From a virus (taxonomy: Duplodnaviria > Heunggongvirae > Uroviricota > Caudoviricetes), in the IMG/VR virus record IMGVR_UViG_2695420521_000002, positions 32,001 through 96,000 of that record: a stretch of 64,000 nt of DNA; one strand, given 5' to 3'. The translations under genes and the position numbers were made by a program. Positions 6,041 to 58,625 of the stretch are shown here, piece after piece. Position 1 is the first letter of the stretch. Every line of letters starts with the position of its first letter. The notes under the pieces are model-generated. The model saw nothing but the letters and a program-made list of their open reading frames with translations, was not told the DNA's origin and did no database searches.

Positions 6041-6493
6041 TCAGATACGTGCGGATGTGGCATTACCGTAATGACGGTGCTGACGGGCCACCTTATTGAA
6101 AAGTTGACGCGCCATTACCCAAGGCTGGTGCTCCCGGCGTTCCTTTTCGTCCTGCGTCATATAGAGTTCGTTCTGGAGTTTTTCATCAAACCGGCGCGGC
6201 GCGCGGCTGCGGCGAAAGAATTCAGGATTCAGAGAGTGGATCTGAAATCTGCGTGGGCGTGTACTGTCATCAATCAAAACAGACGAATACTTAGACACAG
6301 CGATAGCCTTTAAGCGCAGATAAACATCGCGCTTATCGACATCCAGATGCGGGTATTCCTTTTCAAGAATTGCTGCGAGTTCTTTCGCTGATAGAAGAGA
6401 TTTAGTGCGGATCATGTAATCCGCAATCTCGTACGATGTTATTCGTGAGTGATTTATTTCCATGAAGTGGCGTCCCTGCCAGTTAAGTAACAT
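6041..6493 (-). CDS. lpa: putative late promoter activator (Lpa-like) by position and size
   Basis: 150-aa basic protein directly upstream of pacA, preceded by a C1 operator; no domain recognised. Confidence 0.45.
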   Translation of the reverse strand: MLLNWQGRHFMEINHSRITSYEIADYMIRTKSLLSAKELAAILEKEYPHLDVDKRDVYLRLKAIAVSKYSSVLIDDSTRPRRFQIHSLNPEFFRRSRAPRRFDEKLQNELYMTQDEKERREHQPWVMARQLFNKVARQHRHYGNATSARI

Positions 6494-6563
6494 CCTGTCA
6501 CCTACTGATTAGCCCATGTCAACTAATCAACGTGGAATATAATACCCTCGATTAAAGAAATAG

Positions 6564-6580
6564 CAATACATTAGAGCAAT
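6564..6580 (-). promoter_or_regulatory. C1 operator-like 17-mer
   Basis: caatacattagagcaat; 14/17; upstream of lpa-like/pacAB operon. Confidence 0.5.
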
Positions 6581-6581
6581 T

Positions 6582-7625
6582 TTATCTAACGTTCGACGAG
6601 TGACTTGTGATAGCGCCGACTCCAAGCGCGTAATCAAAGAACAATCGTTGATGCATCGCCAGCCTACCGTGCGTCTTCTCCCAATTATCGCGGTCACGCT
6701 CAATATCACGCTGGCATGACTGGCACAGAGGAATAGCATAAATGTCATGCGCGCATAATCGACTATGACGAACGATATAAGGCGTAATGTGAGCGCCAGC
6801 TCCCGCAGCTCCACACCCACAGCATGGACGGGAAGCAACAAAGTCCATGTACTCAGGTAATTTTAGCGATTGCAGTTTTGGTATTTTGAAATGCGCCATA
6901 CCTGGGTCGGAGTCAACATCCACTGGACATACTTTTGCGCGCATCGGCGCGGCACGTTCTTCCATCATCTGAACATATGCTGTAGCGCGATCGTCATACG
7001 GGCGAATATCCGCCTCTTTCAGAGGTCCGCTATCCTGCGTTGCTGCCTTAATCTTATTTATTGATATACGGCAGACTTCTTCCGGCATCAAGTGCATCAT
7101 GTCGCGCATGAAAGCCCACCAGCACAGTTCCTGAATACTTAAATCATGGCCATCTGAAAGCCCCATTTCCTGACGGGCGACATCCAGTATCCAGTTAACG
7201 CGATTATTATGCAGCGTTTCTTTCAGCTCATTAAAACCACGCATCCTGTAATGGTTATCGTGATGCCAGCACAACAACACCGCGCTATTGTCTCGTTCTG
7301 CGTGGACAATATGGTTGTCACACCAGCTACGATCTGCGGCCTGGCATTGCCCCTCTTTCCTGCGCAACCACGCCACCAGCGCGTCAATTCCACCAATACG
7401 GCGAAACAGTTCATCGCTGTTAAAAAACGGCTGCAACGCCTCATTTGTTGCCATAGTTTGCTCGGAAACAACGAGGCCGTCGTCCATGTGCTCGATTAAC
7501 TCACGCGGCACCGGCTCCATAATAAATTTACGGCCAGCCTCCACCAGCTTTCTGACTTCCTGATCCACTTTGAATGTGGCGACGCCAAGCTCTTTTTGTA
7601 CAAAGGGAGTAATTACGGCTTTCAC
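6582..7625 (-). CDS. hypothetical protein with C-terminal Cys-rich cluster
   Basis: 347-aa ORF between doc and lpa-like gene; motif PCCGCG...C..C near C-terminus. Confidence 0.5.
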
Positions 7626-8217: not shown

Positions 8218-8438
8218 TATCGGTTAACCAGTTCCTTGTTGGTGGAGTCCAGGGTGTCAAACAGGGATGCAAATTCAGCATCCAGCGCCGCTTTTTTGTA
8301 GGCTTCGAAAGTAGCCTTGCTGACAATTACTGCTGGCTCACGGCCTCTGCGGGTGATTTCAACCTCTTCCCCGGCTTCAACATTGTTGAGCACTTCAGAA
8401 AGGTTGCCACGCGCGGTACGGAAGTTAATGGATTGCAT
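8217..8438 (-). CDS. phd: Phd antitoxin
   Basis: 73 aa from [19 protein letters not shown] track start 8444 is two codons too long; overlaps doc start. Confidence 0.95.
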
Positions 8439-8444
8439 AAACAC

Positions 8445-8476
8445 CTCGTGTACTCGTTATGTGTACACAATTATAA
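8445..8476 (-). promoter_or_regulatory. phd-doc promoter/operator with palindromic Phd-binding sites
   Basis: palindrome tgtgtacaca (8460..8469) and related site at 8445..8456, adjacent to a TATAAT on - strand. Confidence 0.6.
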
Positions 8477-8851
8477 ACTTCACAGGCATAAAGCACCAGC
8501 ACTTTGCAGCTTAAATAACCGGACAATAATCAAATTCCCCACTTCGGGCATCATTGATGACATGAGTGATCACACCAAAAACAGCATTACTGCCCGTACA
8601 TCCTAGTGTTGACGTGGATACATCCACTATCTTTGGCTATCCGCTGCCCACATGAAGTAGCTCACTGATGGATATCGAAGTAACCTTGCTGAAAATTACC
8701 GCTAGTTATTCATACTCCGCCATTCCTCCTATGCTTCCATACACCGAGTTCATGTGTTTTTAATCGACAGTAACCATCTGAAACATAGATAAGAGAATCT
8801 AAAACGAAGGTCTACTCTATGCTAAATAGAAAGGGAGGCTCAATAGAATAA

Positions 8852-8875
8852 TGGCGTTGAGGAAGTCAACGCCAT
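8852..8875. terminator. hairpin terminator downstream of adhesin gene
   Basis: 9-bp stem tggcgttga/tcaacgcca with AT-rich flanks on both strands. Confidence 0.5.
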
Positions 8876-8909
8876 TATTATTTAAGATTGAGTCATTCTA
8901 AGCAAAAAA

Positions 8910-11900
8910 TTATTCCGCTTCCTTATCATTCGCCTCTACAGCATTAATGGTTATTGTTACCGGTTCCATTTCGTATCCTCCATAGTTTAGAGAGTTGAAT
9001 GTTAATGTATATTTTCCTGGCTTAGTGGTGCTAAATTTGCGTGTAATTTTACCGTTTACAAAATGGTCGGATTTAGAAGGCAGGAATTCATAATCCTCTT
9101 CTTTCACATTGTCAGGTGCCTGAATCTCAACCCACATAGTGCCCCCGACAGGATTATTTTCCGCCATAAGAGTAATCTCCAACGTTGCGGTTGTTGTCCC
9201 ATCCGCCACCAGAGATGTAACATCAGACGATGCGGCAAGCACTGCGTTTTTGTAATCCACAACGAATCTGGACTCAGCTGTTTTAGTCGATGTTTGACCA
9301 TTAGTCTGCTTAACTGTAGCCGTCACTGTATACGTCGCAGCCGTTGTTGTTGTAGCAGTGAAAACAGCCAGCCCTTGCTCATCTGTTGTAGCCCCCCCGT
9401 CAGGTGACAGAGTTAATTCTCCCGGACTGGTACTAGCACTGGCACTCAACGTAACCTCACTCCCTTTCAGGAGGTTGTTATTAGCATCAGTTACCGTAAT
9501 CTTGTATGTTTGTTTATCTTTACCATTTGCCAGAGCATTGTTATTAATCACCTCTATGCTAGAAATGGTTGCTGTAGCTTTGTCAGCCACAAACGTAATC
9601 GTCTTGGTATCTGAAGGCTGCTCATTTTCTGTTGATGCCGTGACCTCATACGATCCAGCAATCACGGAAACTACTTGTAGTTCCGCTTTACCCTCATCGT
9701 TGGTCCTCACCCAAATGTGTTTCCCAGTAATAGGTCTGACCCCCTTTGGTAGATTAAACGTCACCAACTCTCCAGGAACTGCATTGCTATTTTTATCCTT
9801 AACAATAGCCGTCAGCGTAAAGGCATCACTGCCATTTGCTGCTCTTTGAGAGCTATCGTCAACCTGAAGGCTTACCTGCCCAGAACTGGCATCCGCACTG
9901 AACGTCACCGTAACCGTCTTCTGAGCACCATTCACCGAAGCAGTAATATTGTGTTCCCCAGCAACCGTTGACATCAACTCAATATCAGCTTTACCCGCCG
10001 CATTAGTTGTTACCGTATTCCCTGTCTTGCTGGTCACACCCTGCGGTAAAGTCAGCGTGACATTTTGCCCCTGTAACGGGTTGCCATAGGTATCCACGAC
10101 GGTCAGAGTTATCTGGTTAGCAGACTGTCCATTAGCCAGTTGGTTGTTAACCTTCACTGTCATATCACTGATTACTGCCTGAGATGTGTCACCTGCAACA
10201 TTCAGCACCAGAGGCTGGGCAACGGCATTTTGGCCGTTCACTCGCGGCATCACGATTAATTCACCCGCCGTAGTACCCAGAGAAATCTGCGCAGTCCATG
10301 TTCCATCGCCATTATCTGTCCAATCTGATACCGACGACCCCGTAGAGGCTGCGCCCGATAATGACGGCGCTTCCGGGGTGATACCTGTTACTGGGTTGTC
10401 ATTGGCATCTTTTGCTGACCAGATTGCCGTAAGCGTACCGCCAACCACAGGTTTATCCGAGGTCAGAGTGATAGTTGAGTGTTTGGCATCAATCGGCCCG
10501 GCAACAAACTTCAGCGTTTGTTGCAACAAGCCCAACTGATACTGCTCACTAAAGACACGCACAACAACATCTCCGGCACTGGTCGAAGAAACCGTGGCGC
10601 TGTAAATCCCAGGTTTTATCTCCGAAATAGTGCCAACGGTAACTCCGTTGTTGTCCTGCGGAACAAAGCGCAGACGGCTGGCTTCTCCCGTCACAGCGTT
10701 GCCATCGGTATCTACCGCTGTAAGCGTCAGCGTGTAGGATTGCTGACCATCAGCAGTCACATCATCTGAAAGCTCACTCACACTCAGAGTGGACTTTGTC
10801 ACATCCATCATTGTGGCACGCAAATCGGCAGTAACGGTTTTGCTCATACCATCAATGCTCACAGTAATGGTTGCTTCACCTGATTGCGTACCAGTAGTGA
10901 AGACTGACTGATACACCCCTGCTTCAGTTTCGGTGAACTCACCTAATGTTGGCTGTGTCTGTGATTTAGCAGACCTAAGAGCCCGCGTTACAATGTTTCC
11001 GGCAGGTTTAAACGTCAGCTCAGTCTTGATCTGATCTTTCATACCCGTGATTGGTTGTCCCTCGGCATCGCGGAGAGACAGCGCCAGCGTTTTTTGCGAG
11101 CTACCATTAGCAAGCATCTGGATACTGTCCTGTCCGTCAAGCGTTAGCGCAGAACGATCGGCACTCATACTCGCACCGGTAATGACCACCTGTGTCTTTA
11201 CACGCTTCGAGGCATTGCCTTTGTTATCATATGCTACCGCAGAGATCGCGTAATAATTGTCTTTGCCTGCCTGATAAGCCGGGAGCGTCACTTGCCACTG
11301 GTTGCCCTGCCCGGTAATTTTACCGCCCGCAGCCAGCAAAGACGGCGCCTCCCACTGCACATTTTTTAGACCGTGGGTTGCTTTACTGACCACAAGCCCC
11401 AGGGATACCGTCTGCCCGCTCTTACCTTCAATACGCTCAGGCAGAGCAATACGGATCACTTCAGATTTGCGGTATTCAAGAACGATGTTGTTATTACGCT
11501 CAACCAGGTCATAGCGGCTGCCTGTCAGCACACGGCGCTCGCGAATGCTATCCGTATCGAGTTGTTTTTCCAGAGGTTCGCCAATCCGGTAGTTAATTTC
11601 CAGGCCCAAACGGGTGTCATTCTGACCGCTCTTGCCCTGCTTATGCTCTGCGCTCAGGGTCAGAAGAGGTACAGGCGTGTAGTTCACCCCAGCTGAAATA
11701 GCATGTGGGTTTTTCTGGCGTTTATCTTTACCAAACAGTCCTACCTCATCGCCGTAATACTGTTCATACATCAGGCTTGCGCCAAGCTGTGGCCAGGCCG
11801 GTAAATAGCCCTCAGCACGGATATCCCAGCCATTCGCCGGACGTTCCTGATAATCCTCAACATCCGGCGATTTTTTCCAGCCAGAAGCCCGGATATAACC

Positions 11901-12545
11901 ATTGGCGCTCAGTTTAAGATAATCACGCCAGTATTCCGTACCAATACCAATGCGGGTATGACTACGGGATAAATCATGGTCAATGAAGGTATTCACCCCC
12001 GCCATCCAGTCATTACCTGAGAAATGGCGCCAGCCGAAACCAATATTTGACTGAGTGCGATCGTCAGTGCGATGTATTGCCCCCTGAGTGAACAGCATAT
12101 TTGTCGGCGTGTCATATATCGGATAAAGCATTTCCAGCGAAGAATCCTTCAGCGAGAAATCTTTATCGGCATTCAGTTTGACGCGCGCGGTGCCATATTT
12201 CCCGAGCCACTCCTGGATTTCCTGGGTGGCCTTAGCAGTAGCCATTCCGGTAACAAAGTTGCGAGTCGCATCGCTATCCGGCTGACTGCTTAAAAATTTA
12301 CCGGCATTCGCGGCAACCGACGCGATATTTTTTTCTGCATTATTGTCAGTAGCAACCGCAGTATTTTCCGTAGTTAGACGTGGCAAAGTCGCATTATGCG
12401 CCCGCGCTGCCATTGTCGGTGTAAAAGTGACAGCCAATGGAAAAAGAACCTGAACAGAGATGTTTGCCCATGCCACACATCTAGCCAAGGCGGAATAGCG
12501 GAAACGTTGTTGTTTATAAGTTTTATTTAAACGTAACATTGACAT
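8910..12545 (-). CDS. intimin/invasin-family inverse autotransporter adhesin with tandem Ig-like domains
   Basis: 1211 aa; N-terminal signal, beta-barrel region with family motifs (GIGTEYWRDYLKLSANGY, ERPANGWDIRAEGYLP, LMYEQYYGDEVGLF, TGSRYDLVERNNNIVLEYRK), then repeated T/S/V-rich Ig-like segments; AT-rich upstream region. Confidence 0.8.
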   Translation of the reverse strand: MSMLRLNKTYKQQRFRYSALARCVAWANISVQVLFPLAVTFTPTMAARAHNATLPRLTTENTAVATDNNAEKNIASVAANAGKFLSSQPDSDATRNFVTGMATAKATQEIQEWLGKYGTARVKLNADKDFSLKDSSLEMLYPIYDTPTNMLFTQGAIHRTDDRTQSNIGFGWRHFSGNDWMAGVNTFIDHDLSRSHTRIGIGTEYWRDYLKLSANGYIRASGWKKSPDVEDYQERPANGWDIRAEGYLPAWPQLGASLMYEQYYGDEVGLFGKDKRQKNPHAISAGVNYTPVPLLTLSAEHKQGKSGQNDTRLGLEINYRIGEPLEKQLDTDSIRERRVLTGSRYDLVERNNNIVLEYRKSEVIRIALPERIEGKSGQTVSLGLVVSKATHGLKNVQWEAPSLLAAGGKITGQGNQWQVTLPAYQAGKDNYYAISAVAYDNKGNASKRVKTQVVITGASMSADRSALTLDGQDSIQMLANGSSQKTLALSLRDAEGQPITGMKDQIKTELTFKPAGNIVTRALRSAKSQTQPTLGEFTETEAGVYQSVFTTGTQSGEATITVSIDGMSKTVTADLRATMMDVTKSTLSVSELSDDVTADGQQSYTLTLTAVDTDGNAVTGEASRLRFVPQDNNGVTVGTISEIKPGIYSATVSSTSAGDVVVRVFSEQYQLGLLQQTLKFVAGPIDAKHSTITLTSDKPVVGGTLTAIWSAKDANDNPVTGITPEAPSLSGAASTGSSVSDWTDNGDGTWTAQISLGTTAGELIVMPRVNGQNAVAQPLVLNVAGDTSQAVISDMTVKVNNQLANGQSANQITLTVVDTYGNPLQGQNVTLTLPQGVTSKTGNTVTTNAAGKADIELMSTVAGEHNITASVNGAQKTVTVTFSADASSGQVSLQVDDSSQRAANGSDAFTLTAIVKDKNSNAVPGELVTFNLPKGVRPITGKHIWVRTNDEGKAELQVVSVIAGSYEVTASTENEQPSDTKTITFVADKATATISSIEVINNNALANGKDKQTYKITVTDANNNLLKGSEVTLSASASTSPGELTLSPDGGATTDEQGLAVFTATTTTAATYTVTATVKQTNGQTSTKTAESRFVVDYKNAVLAASSDVTSLVADGTTTATLEITLMAENNPVGGTMWVEIQAPDNVKEEDYEFLPSKSDHFVNGKITRKFSTTKPGKYTLTFNSLNYGGYEMEPVTITINAVEANDKEAE

Positions 12546-12993
12546 AATTTCTTGATGAACGCGTTAACGAACATTTGCAACTGCGAGTAAAAACATTTGC
12601 TTTCAGAAATTTCCGAGAGAAAACTCCTAGGGGGCGCGGATGCTATCACAAACCAAAAAGTGTAACAATACATGAACCAGAGAATTAATGCTTGTTATTT
12701 ATCTGTCACCAATATGTTGTGATTGGTTAGCGTCAATGTTATTGGTTATGTTTACCAAATAATAAGAGGGAGTATTTCAATACATGAGAGGATGATTTTT
12801 TTAACATGGGAAGTGAAATCTTTTCCATTATTACATGGTTTATAAATTATAAAAAATGCCCCAATCCATGAATAACGCCTTTAGAGAAATACCCCCCCAT
12901 TTCTATATAATAACTTTGATGTAATGGACGATATATTAGAGCATGTGGCACGCAATCAGATAATAACAATCTTTTCCTTGGATAAATTAGAGA

Positions 12994-13140
12994 TTAATAG
13001 TGCGTCATATTCACGACATAATGGCACACAAGGATTTCTAGATTATTGTTTATTACAATCGATACTATTAAGGTTTTTTTGTTGATAGAGAACAGCCAGA
13101 AATAGATCGCGGCCATAATGATTTTGAATGCCGTGTTCAT
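12994..13140 (-). CDS. possible small hydrophobic peptide
   Basis: 48 aa from internal ATG (MNTAFKIIMAAIYFWLFSINKK...) preceded by AGGAGC; AT-rich region, weak support. Confidence 0.2.
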   Translation of the reverse strand: MNTAFKIIMAAIYFWLFSINKKTLIVSIVINNNLEILVCHYVVNMTHY

Positions 13141-13167
13141 ATTTTCAGCTCCTGTGATTGATTGGAA

Positions 13168-13199
13168 ACATGCCGCGCCTTGCGGCATGTTTTTATTTT
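13168..13199. terminator. GC-rich hairpin with T-run
   Basis: acatgccgc-gcct-gcggcatgt followed by ttttatttt on + strand; just downstream of the HAD-like operon. Confidence 0.4.
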
Positions 13200-13222
13200 C
13201 ACTTTCTCTGTTTTAAAAATCA

Positions 13223-13239
13223 AGATTTATTAGAGCAAT
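13223..13239 (-). promoter_or_regulatory. C1 operator-like 17-mer
   Basis: agatttattagagcaat; 16/17; overlaps stop of HAD-like gene. Confidence 0.6.
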
Positions 13240-13745
13240 TATTGTTGATAAAGAAGCGCATTTTCATACTCCCTGACCATTAACGTAAGCACGCCGTGCC
13301 TCCTGAAAACACGCGCCACTTCAATCTTATCTTCCAGCGCGAACGCGATTTTACTTAGACCAATTTTCTTAAGGAGATCAATCTTTGCTGGGCCGTCATT
13401 TCTGTCATCGGTGGCAGGACGCATAGATAGCAAAGGCTCAGCCCCGTTTGTTACGTACTTCCGCAGCCAGGCTCGTGTTTTATCCCTTGCGATCTCACAG
13501 CGCCCGGTTACAAACCAGACCGTGTAAACGTTAAATAACTGGCGCACCATATCAATAACTGGAGTGATGGGAGCATCAGTGTCACAGGCAAGGTTAAACT
13601 CGTTCCAGTGCTCTGTTAATGCACCTTTGCCAGGTGGTGGAAGCAAATGCAGCCTGTCTTCCGTTGCCTCTGATATCGTCCCATCAATATCGACTATGAC
13701 GATATACGGACGTTCCTGGTGTGCGTGTTTATTGAAAATACTCAA
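13239..13745 (-). CDS. HAD-superfamily phosphatase-like protein
   Basis: 168 aa with N-terminal DxDGT motif (IVIVDIDGTIS). Confidence 0.55.
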   Translation of the reverse strand: MSIFNKHAHQERPYIVIVDIDGTISEATEDRLHLLPPPGKGALTEHWNEFNLACDTDAPITPVIDMVRQLFNVYTVWFVTGRCEIARDKTRAWLRKYVTNGAEPLLSMRPATDDRNDGPAKIDLLKKIGLSKIAFALEDKIEVARVFRRHGVLTLMVREYENALLYQQ

Positions 13746-51471: not shown

Positions 51472-52110
51472 ATGAGAAAACTATTACTACCGTTATTATT
51501 TATGGCTGGGACTGTTAATGCAGCATCAAGTGTAAAGGAGATTTGTACCGACTACACGAAATACCTTGGGCACGTTTACGGTTTCACTGTCAGTCAAGAC
51601 GGCAAGATGAAAAAAGCTCTCCAGAATGATATGACGCGCTTAAGTTTGTCTGAAGCAATGGTTCAGCAAGAAATATATAAGGTTGCGACAGATGATGCTG
51701 CAAAAATGTATTATTCGAAATTTCTTAATCCTAATCTTAATGAATATAACCGTTCGGCTTTTAATCAGATGGTAGCGTATTGTGAAACTGCACCAGATAT
51801 GATGATTCCTAGTTGGGCTGTATTAGTGGCTAATGGAAAAATTCGCAAAGAAGACCAAGGAAAATCTTTAAGTAGCTATATAAATAGCGAACAATTTCTG
51901 AATGCGCGTGGCATGCGCACTCAAAATACTCAAGGTGCGCTTGAGCGGAGGGCTTTAGGGAGTGCTGATGCAAATGATACTGATAATTTGACCCCAGGAA
52001 TAAAAAAATGTGTTGAAACTAAGTTAGCTCTAATGAAACGGGACAGCCCTAACATTCCTGTTTCACAACTTACCGCTACGGCAACTAGTCTCTGCAAAGA
52101 CGGGCTTTAA
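51472..52110 (+). CDS. secreted protein, candidate Sim-like superinfection exclusion factor
   Basis: cleavable signal peptide MRKLLLPLLFMAGTVNA; start at ATG 51472 with GGTGAGG RBS; AT-rich; positional analogy only. Confidence 0.45.
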   Translation: MRKLLLPLLFMAGTVNAASSVKEICTDYTKYLGHVYGFTVSQDGKMKKALQNDMTRLSLSEAMVQQEIYKVATDDAAKMYYSKFLNPNLNEYNRSAFNQMVAYCETAPDMMIPSWAVLVANGKIRKEDQGKSLSSYINSEQFLNARGMRTQNTQGALERRALGSADANDTDNLTPGIKKCVETKLALMKRDSPNIPVSQLTATATSLCKDGL

Positions 52111-52139
52111 ATGTAAAGATATTCGAAGGATAGTGATAA

Positions 52140-52922
52140 GTGAAAAAATTAATGTTTAAACTATTGTTGCCGTTTGCTTTTGTTAGCAGCTATTCATTTG
52201 CAAATTCAATAGCTATTCCTAATGAGTATTCTGTTTCCGAGAAGGACTATAATTTAGTCAGAAACTATATGGTATCTGCTTCGCTTGCATATACTATGAA
52301 TACGAAAGCTACTGTTTTTAGCTTGCCATCAGATATTGTTGATTCATTCAAGAAAAATGAAATAGCAGCCTTAGATGAATGGAGTCAAACTTCTAGAATT
52401 TGGGGTAAGATCGAAAGAATAACATTGTCTAATGGGTATCCTGTTATTGAGCTTGTAAGCCCAGGACAAGCAAAATCGTCTTTGAACTATATAAGATTAG
52501 AAGATACGACTGGCAACAGTCACATAGTAAAAGAACTAACAAAAGAACAAGAAATTTATTCATTATGTTCTGGTGTTAAATTTAGACAAATTCCCACATT
52601 TCAGTATTGCTCATTCTATCTTAATCCTATTGAAGCAAATCTGGAATATGTTGGTAACTATTTCATTCCTCAATATAAAGATAATTTAATAAAGACAGTA
52701 GCCGAGAATAGAACGCTACCGATTGGCGCGTTGACAACAAGATTTATCGGGTACATTATGCTTGTTGGTATTTCTAAAAATAAAAACGATATGGAAAAAA
52801 TAAATTCGTGCACTCCATGGAAGAAAGAATGCAAATCGTATTATGAGTCAATAATAGTAAATGCAACAAAATACTATGCCGATAATGCGAAAGGCTTGGC
52901 TGATTATCTTGAAAAGCTTTAA
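52140..52922 (+). CDS. secreted protein of unknown function
   Basis: 260 aa, GTG start after AAGGA, signal peptide, AT-rich. Confidence 0.45.
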   Translation: MKKLMFKLLLPFAFVSSYSFANSIAIPNEYSVSEKDYNLVRNYMVSASLAYTMNTKATVFSLPSDIVDSFKKNEIAALDEWSQTSRIWGKIERITLSNGYPVIELVSPGQAKSSLNYIRLEDTTGNSHIVKELTKEQEIYSLCSGVKFRQIPTFQYCSFYLNPIEANLEYVGNYFIPQYKDNLIKTVAENRTLPIGALTTRFIGYIMLVGISKNKNDMEKINSCTPWKKECKSYYESIIVNATKYYADNAKGLADYLEKL

Positions 52923-55232: not shown

Positions 55233-58200
55233 ATGGAAAGAAAAAACGCCAACATTGACGATGTTATAAGGACAGTTGAAACCGCCAGCGCAAAAGAGCT
55301 GGAAGAGCTTGCAGGTATCCGGGAAGCTGTTGAAGATTTGAAAGGGGGACGCGTTGCAACTGTTGATCCTGTCTCTCGCAGCGTGTCGGCATTAAATCGC
55401 ACAATCGAAAATTCCCGGCCTGACTTTGTGGCCAAAGCGCCATCCGTAGACCCTATTGTTGACGCAATGAAACGGCTTAATTTAGGGGACGTTTCTCGTG
55501 TAGTTCAGGAAGATGTTGCTCAACAGGAACAGCGGGCCAAATCAACCACACCAAAGGGAAAAAAACGACGCAGGAAGGCTATACCAGAGGATGTAAAGGC
55601 ACAACGGACCGAAGCAGCCGAACACGCTCGCGAAATGTTCGGTCAAAAAGGCGGTGCGCAAAAAAGCCAAAACCAACGCGATGCGCGTGGTCGTTTTATT
55701 GGGAAGTCAGGGAGTAAGGCCGCAGCGGAAGATGCCCGTGCTGAACGTGCTGAAAAAGCCAGGCGCAAAGAGGATGATGAGCGTCTAAATGCTGAATCGG
55801 GTTTATTAAAAAAACTGTCAAAAGTAGCTGAAGGCATAGGTAACCCTTCAGAGACTCGTGCCGTCGATGCTTTAGGTTATGCCGTTGCTGGTCCATTGTG
55901 GGCAGCAGGAAAGGAGCTTGGCGGAATATCAAAAGAAGTTGGCGGTTCGCTTAATGGTGCCAGAAAGTCAATTGCCGATGTGATTCGTGGCAATGACGAT
56001 AACAGCCGTAGAAAAGGTTTTTTTAGGCGTAAATCGCAAAGTAGTGCCGATGTCGTTCAGGTTAACACCCAAAAACGGACGGTTCAGGAACTTCAGGATC
56101 AGACCAGCGAAATTAAAGAAGGCAATGACAAGATTCTCAGCGCCCTTGATCAGATAGCCAAAAACACCGGGAAAAAGAAGGGCGGCTTGCTGTCCAAATT
56201 ATTTAGCCTGTTAGGGAAGGGGGCCGGTGGTATTGCTTCCCTTATTTTTGGCCGTGGGGCACTAAAGAAAGTTGGCTCGATGGCACTAGGCGCTTTAGGT
56301 ATAAAAAAAGTTGCAAGCTTATTGGGCTTTGGTGGGAAAAAAGCTGCTGCCAAAGAAGCTGGCGAATTGGCTACTCGCGGTGCCGGAAAACTTGCAACTA
56401 AGGGATTGGGGAAACTAGGTGTTAAGGCTCTTGCAAAGGGGGCTTTACGCGCAATTCCGCTAGTCGGCACGGTGGCTGGAGGTATCTATGATGCGGTAAC
56501 CGGTTGGAATGATACAGAAGCACAACGTCGGACCTTTGGGCTTAAGGATGGGGAAGATCCATCTTTTCAGCAAAAAGCGGCTTATACACTGGCTAACGTT
56601 CTCGATATGGGAGGACTGGTATCTGGTATTAGCAGTGCCATTGGTGGCGTTCTCAAATCACTTGGATTTGAGGATATCGGCAATATGTTGCAATCATTTT
56701 CGACGGAAAGTATTGCACAGGCCATTGATAGTGGGATTACCAATTTAGAAACATACATTTCTAACCTTGGTGACACCATATCCACAACATTCAACGATTA
56801 CACAGCCAAGATTGGCGATGCTATTTCAGCTTGGTTCAGTGACACAACCAAGAGTCTGAACGAAAAATTAGACGCCATCAAAGACTTCTTTACTGTCGAT
56901 AACCTGAAAAAGGTTTTCAGTGATTCAATTGATAGTGCAATTGATTTCATTAAGAACCCTGGGAAATACATTAAAGAGGCTGGCAGTAATTTATGGCATA
57001 CCGTAAAAGAACATGCGGGCGAGGCAATGGATAAGACAGCAGATGCTGTTATTCAGAGTACCCCTCTTGGCTTAGTTGCATCAACATTAGTCAATAAAGC
57101 GAATGCGAAAGAGGTCACGCCTGAATTAAAAACACCTGCTAAAGAAAGTCAGGAGAGGAATACTCCTAAGTCTGAAGATATCCCTAAAAAGGCTAATATT
57201 GTCACTCGTGTTGTAAATGCATCCCTGGATACGGCTCAGAATGGCAATAAAATAGTTAAAGAGACAGCCAATCAGATTATCAATGCAAATGCCGTAGAAA
57301 CAGGAAATAAAGCGGCACAAACAATTGATGCTGCTTTGGGCCAGTCTGCTACAGGCAAGGAGGAAGCATTAAGTGCATATGAGATAGATAAACGTCGATT
57401 TAACAACGGCAAGGATGTTTCTTTGCCAAAATTAAATGCTGCCGGATACCAATGGATTTCTGACAATGCCGATTATTTTGATGAGCTTGAACGTAAGTAT
57501 GGGCTTGAAAAAGGGATTCTGTCAGCAGTTGCATCCGCAGAGTCTAGTGCTGGCCAGAGAACTGGAAATCCAGTAGACAAAAACGGAAACAAACTTTCAT
57601 CTGCCCTTGGGGCTTTTCAGATCACTAAAGGTACAAGGGAGGATCTTGGACTCAGCGATGCTGATGCCATGGATACACGAAAAGCAGCTGATGGTGCCGC
57701 CAGATACCTAAGTATGCTGATGAACCGTTATAACGGTGATCAGGGGCGTGCAATAGCTGCCTATCATGCTGGTATGGGGCATGTTGATAAGGGGAGAGTA
57801 GTCGCCGGTACCGGCGAATATGTGACTCGTGTCAGAGGGTATCAGCAGATGCTCAATAATGGTGCCGTTTATGGCTCTAAGGTAGATCATAGCGCACCAG
57901 CAATTTACGAAAAGATACCTGATAACGCCGTTATCGATCAGTCTACTGGTCTGGCGTTTACCCCTGGTGATAGCCCGTTTGAGAAAGGCGGTCTGGTAGA
58001 CAAAATCGGCAATGCTGTTGGCGTTAACGATCTGGTCAACAAATTCATGAATGGCCGGGGGATGCGTCGGGAAGTCGTCCAGGGAACCCTCGAAGAACGT
58101 GCACGAGGAAGGGGAACCGCAACGGCAGCTGGCAATGTGTATGTTGACACACCTATGCCAGTTGAAGAGGCACGTCCGGTGGCCAACAACTCAAGTTACT

Positions 58201-58625
58201 TTGACCAGCTCGGCGCACAAATGGGGATTGATGGACTGTATGACAAACTCATTAATGCCCGGGGAATGCGCTCAAATAATTCTCCTCAACCAGCTTCCAC
58301 GTCCCAGATGACGACTGTCGCCAACGATTTGCAGCAACCAACCGGTCGTATGCAGATAGACGGGCAGGTTATTAGTGACCTTGGCGGTTCCGGTGCCAAG
58401 CCGACAATGCAGTTGGCTGATAATACCGTTTCACTTGATGGTGAAACGAAGCGGCTGTTTGCGCAGATGACCTCATTGCTTGCCAGGATTGAAGAGCACA
58501 CCAAAGACTCGGCGAAAGGCCAGGGAACTGTCGTAAAGGTCAGCACGCCTCAGCCGGGCGTTATGCGCACGGTACCACTGTCAATTGATGATCCGTTGAT
58601 GAATGACTACGCGAGAGTTGATTGA
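55233..58625 (+). CDS. sit: Sit-like tape-measure / injection protein with lytic transglycosylase domain
   Basis: 1130 aa; central coiled-coil and Gly-rich segments; SLT-like motifs AESSAG...GAFQI...AYHAG near residues 760-850. Confidence 0.8.
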   Translation: MERKNANIDDVIRTVETASAKELEELAGIREAVEDLKGGRVATVDPVSRSVSALNRTIENSRPDFVAKAPSVDPIVDAMKRLNLGDVSRVVQEDVAQQEQRAKSTTPKGKKRRRKAIPEDVKAQRTEAAEHAREMFGQKGGAQKSQNQRDARGRFIGKSGSKAAAEDARAERAEKARRKEDDERLNAESGLLKKLSKVAEGIGNPSETRAVDALGYAVAGPLWAAGKELGGISKEVGGSLNGARKSIADVIRGNDDNSRRKGFFRRKSQSSADVVQVNTQKRTVQELQDQTSEIKEGNDKILSALDQIAKNTGKKKGGLLSKLFSLLGKGAGGIASLIFGRGALKKVGSMALGALGIKKVASLLGFGGKKAAAKEAGELATRGAGKLATKGLGKLGVKALAKGALRAIPLVGTVAGGIYDAVTGWNDTEAQRRTFGLKDGEDPSFQQKAAYTLANVLDMGGLVSGISSAIGGVLKSLGFEDIGNMLQSFSTESIAQAIDSGITNLETYISNLGDTISTTFNDYTAKIGDAISAWFSDTTKSLNEKLDAIKDFFTVDNLKKVFSDSIDSAIDFIKNPGKYIKEAGSNLWHTVKEHAGEAMDKTADAVIQSTPLGLVASTLVNKANAKEVTPELKTPAKESQERNTPKSEDIPKKANIVTRVVNASLDTAQNGNKIVKETANQIINANAVETGNKAAQTIDAALGQSATGKEEALSAYEIDKRRFNNGKDVSLPKLNAAGYQWISDNADYFDELERKYGLEKGILSAVASAESSAGQRTGNPVDKNGNKLSSALGAFQITKGTREDLGLSDADAMDTRKAADGAARYLSMLMNRYNGDQGRAIAAYHAGMGHVDKGRVVAGTGEYVTRVRGYQQMLNNGAVYGSKVDHSAPAIYEKIPDNAVIDQSTGLAFTPGDSPFEKGGLVDKIGNAVGVNDLVNKFMNGRGMRREVVQGTLEERARGRGTATAAGNVYVDTPMPVEEARPVANNSSYFDQLGAQMGIDGLYDKLINARGMRSNNSPQPASTSQMTTVANDLQQPTGRMQIDGQVISDLGGSGAKPTMQLADNTVSLDGETKRLFAQMTSLLARIEEHTKDSAKGQGTVVKVSTPQPGVMRTVPLSIDDPLMNDYARVD

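Follow-up and report, generated by a model that had tools for sequence, protein, structure and literature searches.

A gene for a large surface adhesin lies between phd (8220-8438) and pap (13242-13745) in the stretch of viral DNA considered here, a window of 64,000 nucleotides that covers positions 32,001 to 96,000 of the IMG/VR record IMGVR_UViG_2695420521_000002, and its position raises the question of where such a gene came from and what it could do on the element that carries it. Contig CYGK01000014.1 (99,399 bp) of the Escherichia coli assembly GCA_001286565.1 matches the DNA of the window at 100% identity. From the sequence, we consider it likely that the locus holds an intact adhesin gene of the FdeC lineage (type Ve), carried as cargo in variable region 8 of an otherwise complete P1-like IncY phage-plasmid, that this cargo came from an SSU5-like donor, and that the product is displayed as an extra adhesin. 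A preliminary description of this DNA had proposed the adhesin as a candidate factor of lysogenic conversion, which we regard as a reasonable hypothesis.

The open reading frame (ORF) of 1211 aa that had been assigned to the intimin/invasin family is present on the minus strand at 8910..12545, with a maximal length of 3636 nt. The true start is probably the second ATG, at 12539, which gives a protein of 1209 aa, because chromosomal fdeC has ATC at the position of the first ATG and the public annotations begin at MLRL. An exact-protein look-up of the 1211-aa form returned no match, and the 1209-aa form is present in public protein records; the product of the ORF is identical (100%) to the protein encoded on the 99,399-bp E. 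coli contig. By eye, the N-terminus holds a putative Sec signal peptide, in which the N-region is basic and comes with a hydrophobic stretch VAWANISVQVLFPLAVTF and the motif AARA|HN, and it is near-identical to the N-terminus of FdeC. The beta-barrel translocator domain occupies residues 78-352 (11490..12314, minus strand) and matches the Pfam profile PF11924 IAT_beta with an E of 6.1e-109 over profile positions 3-279 of 279, as well as the solved barrels of invasin (4e1t, E 7.9e-84) and intimin (4e1s, E 1.9e-73) in the PDB. The passenger (residues ~360-1211; 8913..11468, minus strand) is made of tandem immunoglobulin (Ig)-like domains, in which Pfam finds Big_1 in four stretches (E 9.8e-69) and Invasin_D3 in seven (E 3.6e-67). 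The hidden Markov model search proposed for this protein therefore returns both the barrel and the repeats, and the barrel lies N-terminal to the Ig-like passenger, the domain order of an inverse autotransporter (type Ve). Judged by these domains, membership in this family is certain.

Placement within the family is given by the subfamily models and by structure. The NCBIfam matches of the adhesin are inverse-autotransporter models only (IatC, Ilp, intimin, SinH and invasin), and because every score lies far below its curated cut-off (397 bits against 1400 for intimin_all), none of these named subfamilies applies to it by this measure. A model for FdeC is not among the NCBIfam matches, so there is no curated cut-off for FdeC to apply. 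The best match in sequence to a solved structure is the crystal fragment 4E9L of FdeC (E 3.1e-138). The distal third of the passenger is its most variable part. AlphaFold2, run on the last 322 aa with a 19-sequence alignment, gives a model with a mean confidence score (pLDDT) of 92.7 that folds into three all-beta Ig-like domains and contains no helix-containing lectin cap; Foldseek matches this tip model best to invasin, intimin D0-D1, FdeC and InvD. The Pfam scan of the adhesin found no LysM and no Intimin_C. Identity as an intimin is ruled out by the lack of LysM and of a lectin-like D3, by the intimin_all score, and by the all-beta Ig C-terminus.

Aligned globally with the 1417-aa chromosomal FdeC, the adhesin is colinear with it and 82.7% identical over aligned columns; identity reaches 93-97% across the barrel and falls to 72-74% for the distal domains. 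The sole gap is one of 208 aa and corresponds to residues 766-973 of FdeC, that is, to two Ig repeats. Of 5426 complete E. coli genomes, 5026 carry chromosomal fdeC, whose DNA is ~82% identical to that of the adhesin gene. Homology at the DNA level begins ~30 nt before the start codon and extends through a terminator-like hairpin (8847..8879, minus strand), which lies 33 nt past the adhesin stop and has a 14-bp stem and a 5-nt loop. This hairpin folds with a free energy of -18.6 kcal/mol (z -5.86), and its U-tract is weak, so that it falls below the consensus terminator scan; the same hairpin stands 3' of chromosomal fdeC in strain SMS-3-5. The gene thus does have its own terminator, as had been suggested. 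Beyond about -30, no homology is found between the upstream regions of the adhesin gene and chromosomal fdeC, and because these regions are unrelated, the published data on the fdeC promoter are not directly transferable to the adhesin.

Chromosomal fdeC has a helix-turn-helix regulator gene on one side and aldo/keto-reductase genes on the other, and the adhesin gene is flanked instead by P1 phd and pap. Goh et al. (PMC6714894) place each inverse autotransporter (IAT) orthologue at a conserved chromosomal position, describe all six E. coli inverse autotransporter genes analysed in detail as chromosomal, and give for FdeC, in contrast to YeeJ, IatC and IatD, the layout free of LysM and lectin cap that the adhesin fits. 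Since the conserved chromosomal locus is not shared, the adhesin is, as far as its sequence and position tell, a shorter paralogue of FdeC, neither an intimin nor the chromosomal orthologue. Public labels for the relatives differ: p2RM9976 and some close relatives carry the generic name "inverse autotransporter beta domain-containing protein", and other close relatives are labelled FdeC.

The gene lies on an element that, over the visible 64 kb, is apparently a complete P1-like (Punavirus) IncY phage-plasmid of E. coli, in agreement with the location proposed earlier. Nearly all blocks of the window that match P1 do so at 95-98% DNA identity, and together the matching blocks account for all of it that lies beyond the known variable regions. 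Identity to the P1 counterpart is 100% for each of RepA, ParB, Lpa, Phd and Doc and 99.7% for ParA; the remaining P1 backbone proteins in the window are full length and mostly 92-100% identical, with Sit the lowest at 77%. The full-length set includes virion, replication, partition, lytic-replicon and late-activator genes. Sites that resemble the C1 operator number 15 in the window, against 0.36 expected by chance. The homologue of the Sit tape-measure/transglycosylase protein (55233-58622) is full length, and its low identity to P1 Sit comes with internal DNA blocks that are non-matching or only ~80% identical, because of which a mosaic tail gene is suggested. In the c1-proximal region, distant from the ant1 locus of the window (49795-50826), the interval 1603-1937 is 85% identical to part of P1 ant.

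The accessory island had been drawn at 8445-13238. The region is accessory relative to P1, although its foreign part is smaller than that. Comparison of the flanks with P1 (blastn against NC_005856) shows that P1 homology stops at 8597, with 97.6% identity before this point, and restarts at 13083, which places both breakpoints (8597/8598 and 13082/13083) to within a few bases and leaves 8445-8597 and 13083-13238 as P1 backbone, not foreign DNA. The cargo segment between them (8598..13082, 4485 bp) is homologous to SSU5-like loci and stands in for 3437 bp of P1, so that we are dealing with a replacement and not a pure insertion. The displaced P1 genes are nine: most of humD, lxr, hot, upfO, upfN, upfM, pmgV, pmgU and pmgT. 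Searches by blastn, tblastx and tblastn recovered none of them elsewhere in the window, so these genes are truly lost from it.

The left junction falls inside a 3' remnant of humD/umuD' of ~30 codons (8514..8603, minus strand), which tblastn with P1 HumD recovers at 23% coverage and 90% identity; an SSU5-like umuD-like protein shows 87% aa identity over the same stretch. At the right junction the last ~12 codons of a donor MarR gene remain (13045..13082, minus strand), as seen from the alignment with the MarR 3' ends of loci L003, L005 and L007. Reading of the sequence shows that this junction is spanned by a hybrid leader ORF of 48 aa (12994..13140, minus strand), whose first 19 codons come from an ORF that is preceded by a Shine-Dalgarno sequence and unannotated in P1, where it has 27 codons and lies just upstream of pmgT, and whose remainder is cargo DNA. 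The hybrid ORF is annotated as a gene in the public contig and has no match in Pfam; it is probably a by-product of the junction.

The slot itself is known as variable region 8 (pmgT-humD, between phd and pap) of P1-like phage-plasmids in a survey of these elements that never uses the words adhesin and virulence (PMC9603915). The GenBank record of P1 (NC_005856) mentions a conjugative plasmid with the EcoDXXI hsd locus between the same two P1 flanks. In a genome-wide CRISPR interference (CRISPRi) screen of P1, eight of the nine displaced genes were non-essential (PMC10695390); upfM was outside that screen and was scored non-essential in a study that PMC10695390 cites. Because the displaced genes were scored non-essential, the swap should not disable the phage.

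Among the displaced genes, pmgT, pmgU and pmgV are labelled "putative morphogenetic", and Ig-like domains are common on phage virions, which could point to a protein of virion structure or host range, such as an Ig-domain decoration or a fibre of the phage family. The outer-membrane beta-barrel and the FdeC-type N-terminus argue otherwise, and the nearest kin of the protein is the chromosomal FdeC that most E. coli genomes encode. Neither P1 nor P7 has the gene, nor does any of the 26 P1-like phage records with matches to its flanks; a tblastn search of 50,697 phage records with the adhesin found no genuine phage, its only matches being a Salmonella chromosome contig misfiled as phage and a fragment of 2 kb. 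A conserved structural gene of the phage family, which the preliminary description had named as a refuting outcome, is not what is found. We give virtually no credence to the virion-protein identity, which is effectively refuted by the outer-membrane barrel, the kinship with FdeC and the absence from phage records.

The FdeC-lineage cargo can be traced to its relatives. The closest relatives of the adhesin are 92-98% identical to it, have 1209-1213 aa and lie on contigs of ~97-147 kb. Copies with the same two junctions on a P1-like backbone are those of the E. albertii plasmid p2RM9976 and of a 96.7-kb IMG/VR contig of unknown host, the latter colinear with the window over 19.6 kb. Since the junctions are shared among the P1-like copies, the data argue for a single replacement event that was followed by spread between E. 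coli and E. albertii. Plasmid p2RM9976 also has, at its positions 6060-7211, an unannotated insert of ~1.15 kb that resembles an insertion sequence and sits exactly at the humD-remnant junction; its island is otherwise the same, and its phd-doc region is changed as well.

Other copies, with 92-97% protein identity (e.g. p108_MLI108-3, NZ_CP117002, and contig DADRRT010000016), are found on a different backbone that carries metG, apbC, rnhA and terB-like genes. We assign this backbone to the SSU5/pHCM2-like phage-plasmids because it is 96% identical to phages Cyrano and CMS-2020a and 82% identical to SSU5; among these copies, a protein with 97% identity (P0004) is located on SSU5-like backbones. 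There, a MarR-family gene (assigned by Pfam PF01047, E 2e-12) precedes the adhesin gene, in some copies together with a PerC-family gene, and in some copies a umuD-like gene lies downstream. In phage Cyrano the slot holds Ea22/Eae/Eaa-type genes instead of this module, and the adhesin module is for this reason accessory in SSU5-like elements too. The cargo of the window matches the SSU5-like locus L007 over 13024-8812 with 94% identity, and L005 up to 13080, so that the homology spans from ~100 bp past the adhesin stop up to the MarR stop codon. The humD/umuD' homologue is ~80-83% identical in DNA between the P1-like and the SSU5-like families, and the closest donor, L007, has a decayed umuD-like copy with an internal deletion, placed similarly to that of the window. 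Because fragments of donor genes remain at the junctions, we argue for a transfer from an SSU5-like to a P1-like element, a direction that rests on the junction anatomy of a handful of loci.

By sequence, the FdeC lineage is present in at least three kinds of extrachromosomal element. The E. fergusonii plasmid pEF45-3, an IncFII conjugative plasmid, carries a 1001-aa relative of the adhesin that adjoins the aerobactin operon and is 87% identical in DNA over the N-terminal two thirds; ~15 other plasmids of E. fergusonii and Salmonella give the same match, with the context read for pEF45-3 alone.

These junctions suggest how the replacement may have taken place. The source that was copied would be the PerC-MarR-adhesin-umuD module of an SSU5/pHCM2-like phage-plasmid. 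One crossover would have been assisted by homology, in the humD/umuD' homologue common to both elements, and the other would be an illegitimate join of the end of the donor MarR gene to the small leader ORF upstream of P1 pmgT. Such an exchange would have cost the recipient nine P1 genes dispensable for lytic growth and would have left behind the two regulators of the donor. From what is known of the family, the adhesin would be exported by Sec, its 12-stranded barrel (residues 78-352) would be put into the outer membrane, and ~8-9 Ig-like domains would be threaded outward to form a rod on the cell surface. With such a rod the lysogen would gain a further adhesin of the FdeC type, antigenically distinct, for use on host tissue or in biofilm.

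A more far-reaching reading takes the cassette as a dedicated module that moves between the SSU5-like and P1-like families through a umuD'/humD portal and that was rewired to the lysis-lysogeny switch through the loss of MarR and PerC and its placement behind PpmgT. We regard this as rather improbable; if true, it would mean that a virulence or colonisation factor carried by a phage is regulated by a new logic.

Whether the adhesin would be made at all depends on the region upstream of it. As described earlier, this region is rich in AT: the G+C content of 12546-13082 (537 bp) is 33%, compared with 47% across the window. Composition and a six-way alignment delimit a donor-derived regulatory region at 12546..13044 (minus strand), and the proximal ~170 bp are strongly conserved in all six aligned phage-plasmid copies, which come from both plasmid families. 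An invariant block within the alignment holds, by eye, a candidate weak promoter on the minus strand, with the -35 element TTGTTA at 12663-12668, a 17-nt spacer and TGn-TAGCAT at 12640-12645. The adhesin presumably has its own promoter, because the same gene occurs in SSU5-like elements that lack the C1 operator, and its transcription would probably start from this weak conserved signal, ~95-125 nt upstream of the start codon, in DNA of the kind silenced by H-NS. The low G+C of the region makes silencing by H-NS plausible. In Yersinia, the MarR/SlyA-type protein RovA counteracts H-NS at the invasin promoter, which offers an analogy for the lost MarR. For fdeC itself, control by H-NS and temperature is reported (Easton et al. 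2014, as cited in PMC11143625).

A C1 operator had been reported as lacking in front of the gene, and this does not hold. The interval 13195..13239 is identical to P1 and, from the P1 annotation carried over by gap-free alignment, still has two promoters, P1pmgT and P2pmgT, and a C1 operator, OpmgT/Op88. The operator is ATTGCTCTAATAAATCT at 13223-13239 on the minus strand, with one mismatch to the operator consensus, and both predicted promoters (13195-13238) and Op88 are on the strand of the adhesin, ~650 nt upstream, pointing at the gene. Since a consensus scan finds no minus-strand terminator-like site between 13195 and 12546 and the leader hairpin (13150-13192) lacks a U-tract when read on the minus strand, read-through from PpmgT into the adhesin gene on derepression is possible, and the C1-repressed promoter may in this way add to adhesin transcription when the prophage is derepressed. 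The same retained elements, together with the open path to the gene, would also fit a stronger claim, in which the adhesin is made mainly from PpmgT on derepression and not during stable lysogeny, for example so that cells clump and neighbours are infected more readily. However, SSU5-like elements have the same gene and the same upstream region without a C1 operator, which makes the placement behind PpmgT look like a positional accident, and a large outer-membrane protein made shortly before lysis would bring no obvious benefit. We find expression coupled mainly to induction very unlikely.

Ratios of non-synonymous to synonymous divergence (dN/dS, by Nei-Gojobori) for the adhesin are 0.27-0.29 in comparisons with the two other P1-like copies, 0.27 in those with two SSU5-like copies and 0.18 in that with a copy further removed. 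Among the three P1-like copies the synonymous divergence (dS) is 0.03-0.04, with 21-31 non-synonymous and 23-36 synonymous changes. All copies are intact full-length ORFs, and the divergence lies mostly within the distal 300 residues. This pattern points to a functional protein that is under purifying selection and whose tip varies, as the tips of adhesins usually do.

Several observations weigh against a displayed adhesin of use to a functional phage-plasmid. The competence of the phage is judged from 64 kb of a 99-kb contig. The candidate promoter agrees with the consensus at 8 of 12 positions and is under the scan threshold, and a consensus promoter scan of the upstream region returns 8 sites, against 8.9 expected from shuffled sequence. 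MarR and PerC homologues were sought in the window and none was found, because of which the adhesin may be silent in the P1-like element. The segment is also rare: it is found at ≥95% identity in none of the 5426 complete E. coli genomes, and only three P1-like copies were found. For these two reasons the benefit of the adhesin to P1-like carriers may be small or niche-specific. Plasmid-borne matches make up 11 of the 5035 matching places in complete E. coli genomes, and in PLSDB p2RM9976 alone covers the island. Even for FdeC the term adhesin may be an oversimplification, because in a study on avian pathogenic E. coli (APEC) the deletion of fdeC raised adhesion (PMC11143625).

Taken to their end, such observations would make the gene silent, hitch-hiking cargo, intact because it was captured recently and never expressed without MarR and PerC and under H-NS, with no phenotype. 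The missing regulators, the low G+C upstream, the weak promoter-like signal, the rarity of the element and the low divergence of the three P1-like copies all fit this view. On the other side, dN/dS is ~0.27 even among the P1-like copies, the ORF is full length in every copy, and the proximal 170 bp upstream are conserved in both plasmid families. The same junctions in E. coli, in E. albertii and in the IMG/VR contig imply persistence and spread. We consider silent cargo unlikely, as a minority reading that keeps some weight, and a displayed adhesin of the FdeC lineage remains the reading that we prefer.

The phage-plasmid carries other genes that are foreign to P1. Within a non-P1 segment at 46141-48014, a minus-strand gene (47357-47872) encodes a 171-aa outer-membrane protein of the Ail/Lom family (PF06316, E 1e-22; OMP_b-brl, E 9e-25); it fills the rlfA/rlfB/pmgF variable slot and is a second surface-protein cargo gene of the element. 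Between P1 gene 5 and dbn, an insertion of 1.4 kb (23858-25238) contains a plus-strand ORF (23971-25134) for a 387-aa protein of the YeeE/YedE sulphur-transport type (PF04143, E 3e-40). The tciA/tciB/upl slot of P1 is replaced at 28215-29632, where the largest ORF (28233-29060, minus strand) encodes a 275-aa protein of the SPFH/Band-7 type (PF01145, E 1e-30) whose N-terminus is lipoprotein-like. The sim (superimmunity) slot (51445-52922, plus strand) contains ORFs for two proteins, of 221 and 260 aa, whose N-termini resemble signal peptides and which have no match in Pfam; of the P1 Sim proteins, SimC finds a match at just 34% identity and SimB finds none.

The protein family, the exchangeable slot and the exchange of cargo between phage-plasmids are already established, and the gene itself is already annotated publicly. 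A full-text search of the literature returned no paper that joins inverse autotransporters or FdeC with phage-plasmids, including the P1-like, SSU5 and pHCM2 elements. Phage-plasmids, P1 among them, are mostly discussed as carriers of antibiotic resistance, and the present one carries a large adhesin of the colonisation type. The junctions indicate that the adhesin gene crossed between two unrelated phage-plasmid families, and the locus is a clean natural example of cargo exchange at variable region 8 of P1. Provided that the gene is expressed, a strain infected by such a transducing phage, which forms a plasmid, would acquire a second FdeC with different antigenic properties. The literature credits FdeC with eliciting protection against urinary tract infection. 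Both E. coli and the emerging pathogen E. albertii harbour this element, which adds to its relevance.

Compared with known systems, the locus resembles other occupants of variable region 8 in its slot, which lies between phd-doc and Op88/pap and holds different cargo in different elements, and it differs from them in that the cargo is an outer-membrane adhesin. With the module of SSU5-like phage-plasmids it shares the adhesin gene, the AT-rich upstream region as far as the stop codon of MarR and, downstream, a umuD-like gene that is either decayed or intact; in contrast to that module, the P1-like element lacks the MarR and PerC genes, apart from the ~12 MarR codons that are left, and has phd and pap as flanks and a C1-controlled promoter upstream. 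Similar to intimin (Eae) and the invasin of Yersinia, the protein has an IAT beta-barrel and tandem Big domains, and its passenger matches 1cwv and 6tpl in structure, whereas LysM and the C-terminal lectin-like receptor-binding domain of those proteins are missing from it. Lom and Bor of phage lambda are outer-membrane proteins encoded by prophage "morons". Like these morons, the adhesin gene is an addition within the genome of a temperate phage, is preceded by AT-rich DNA and followed by its own terminator, and encodes a protein of the bacterial surface and not a part of the virion; it belongs to another family, is far larger (3.6 kb), and its expression in the lysogen is putative. The closest known system is FdeC/EaeH, an inverse-autotransporter adhesin encoded on the E. 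coli chromosome and reportedly described by Nesta et al. in 2012. Colinearity of the two proteins extends from the N-terminus through to the last Ig domain, and neither has LysM or a C-type lectin cap. The adhesin differs from FdeC/EaeH in being 208 aa shorter, in its diverged tip and its unrelated regulatory region, and in being carried by a phage-plasmid instead of the chromosome.

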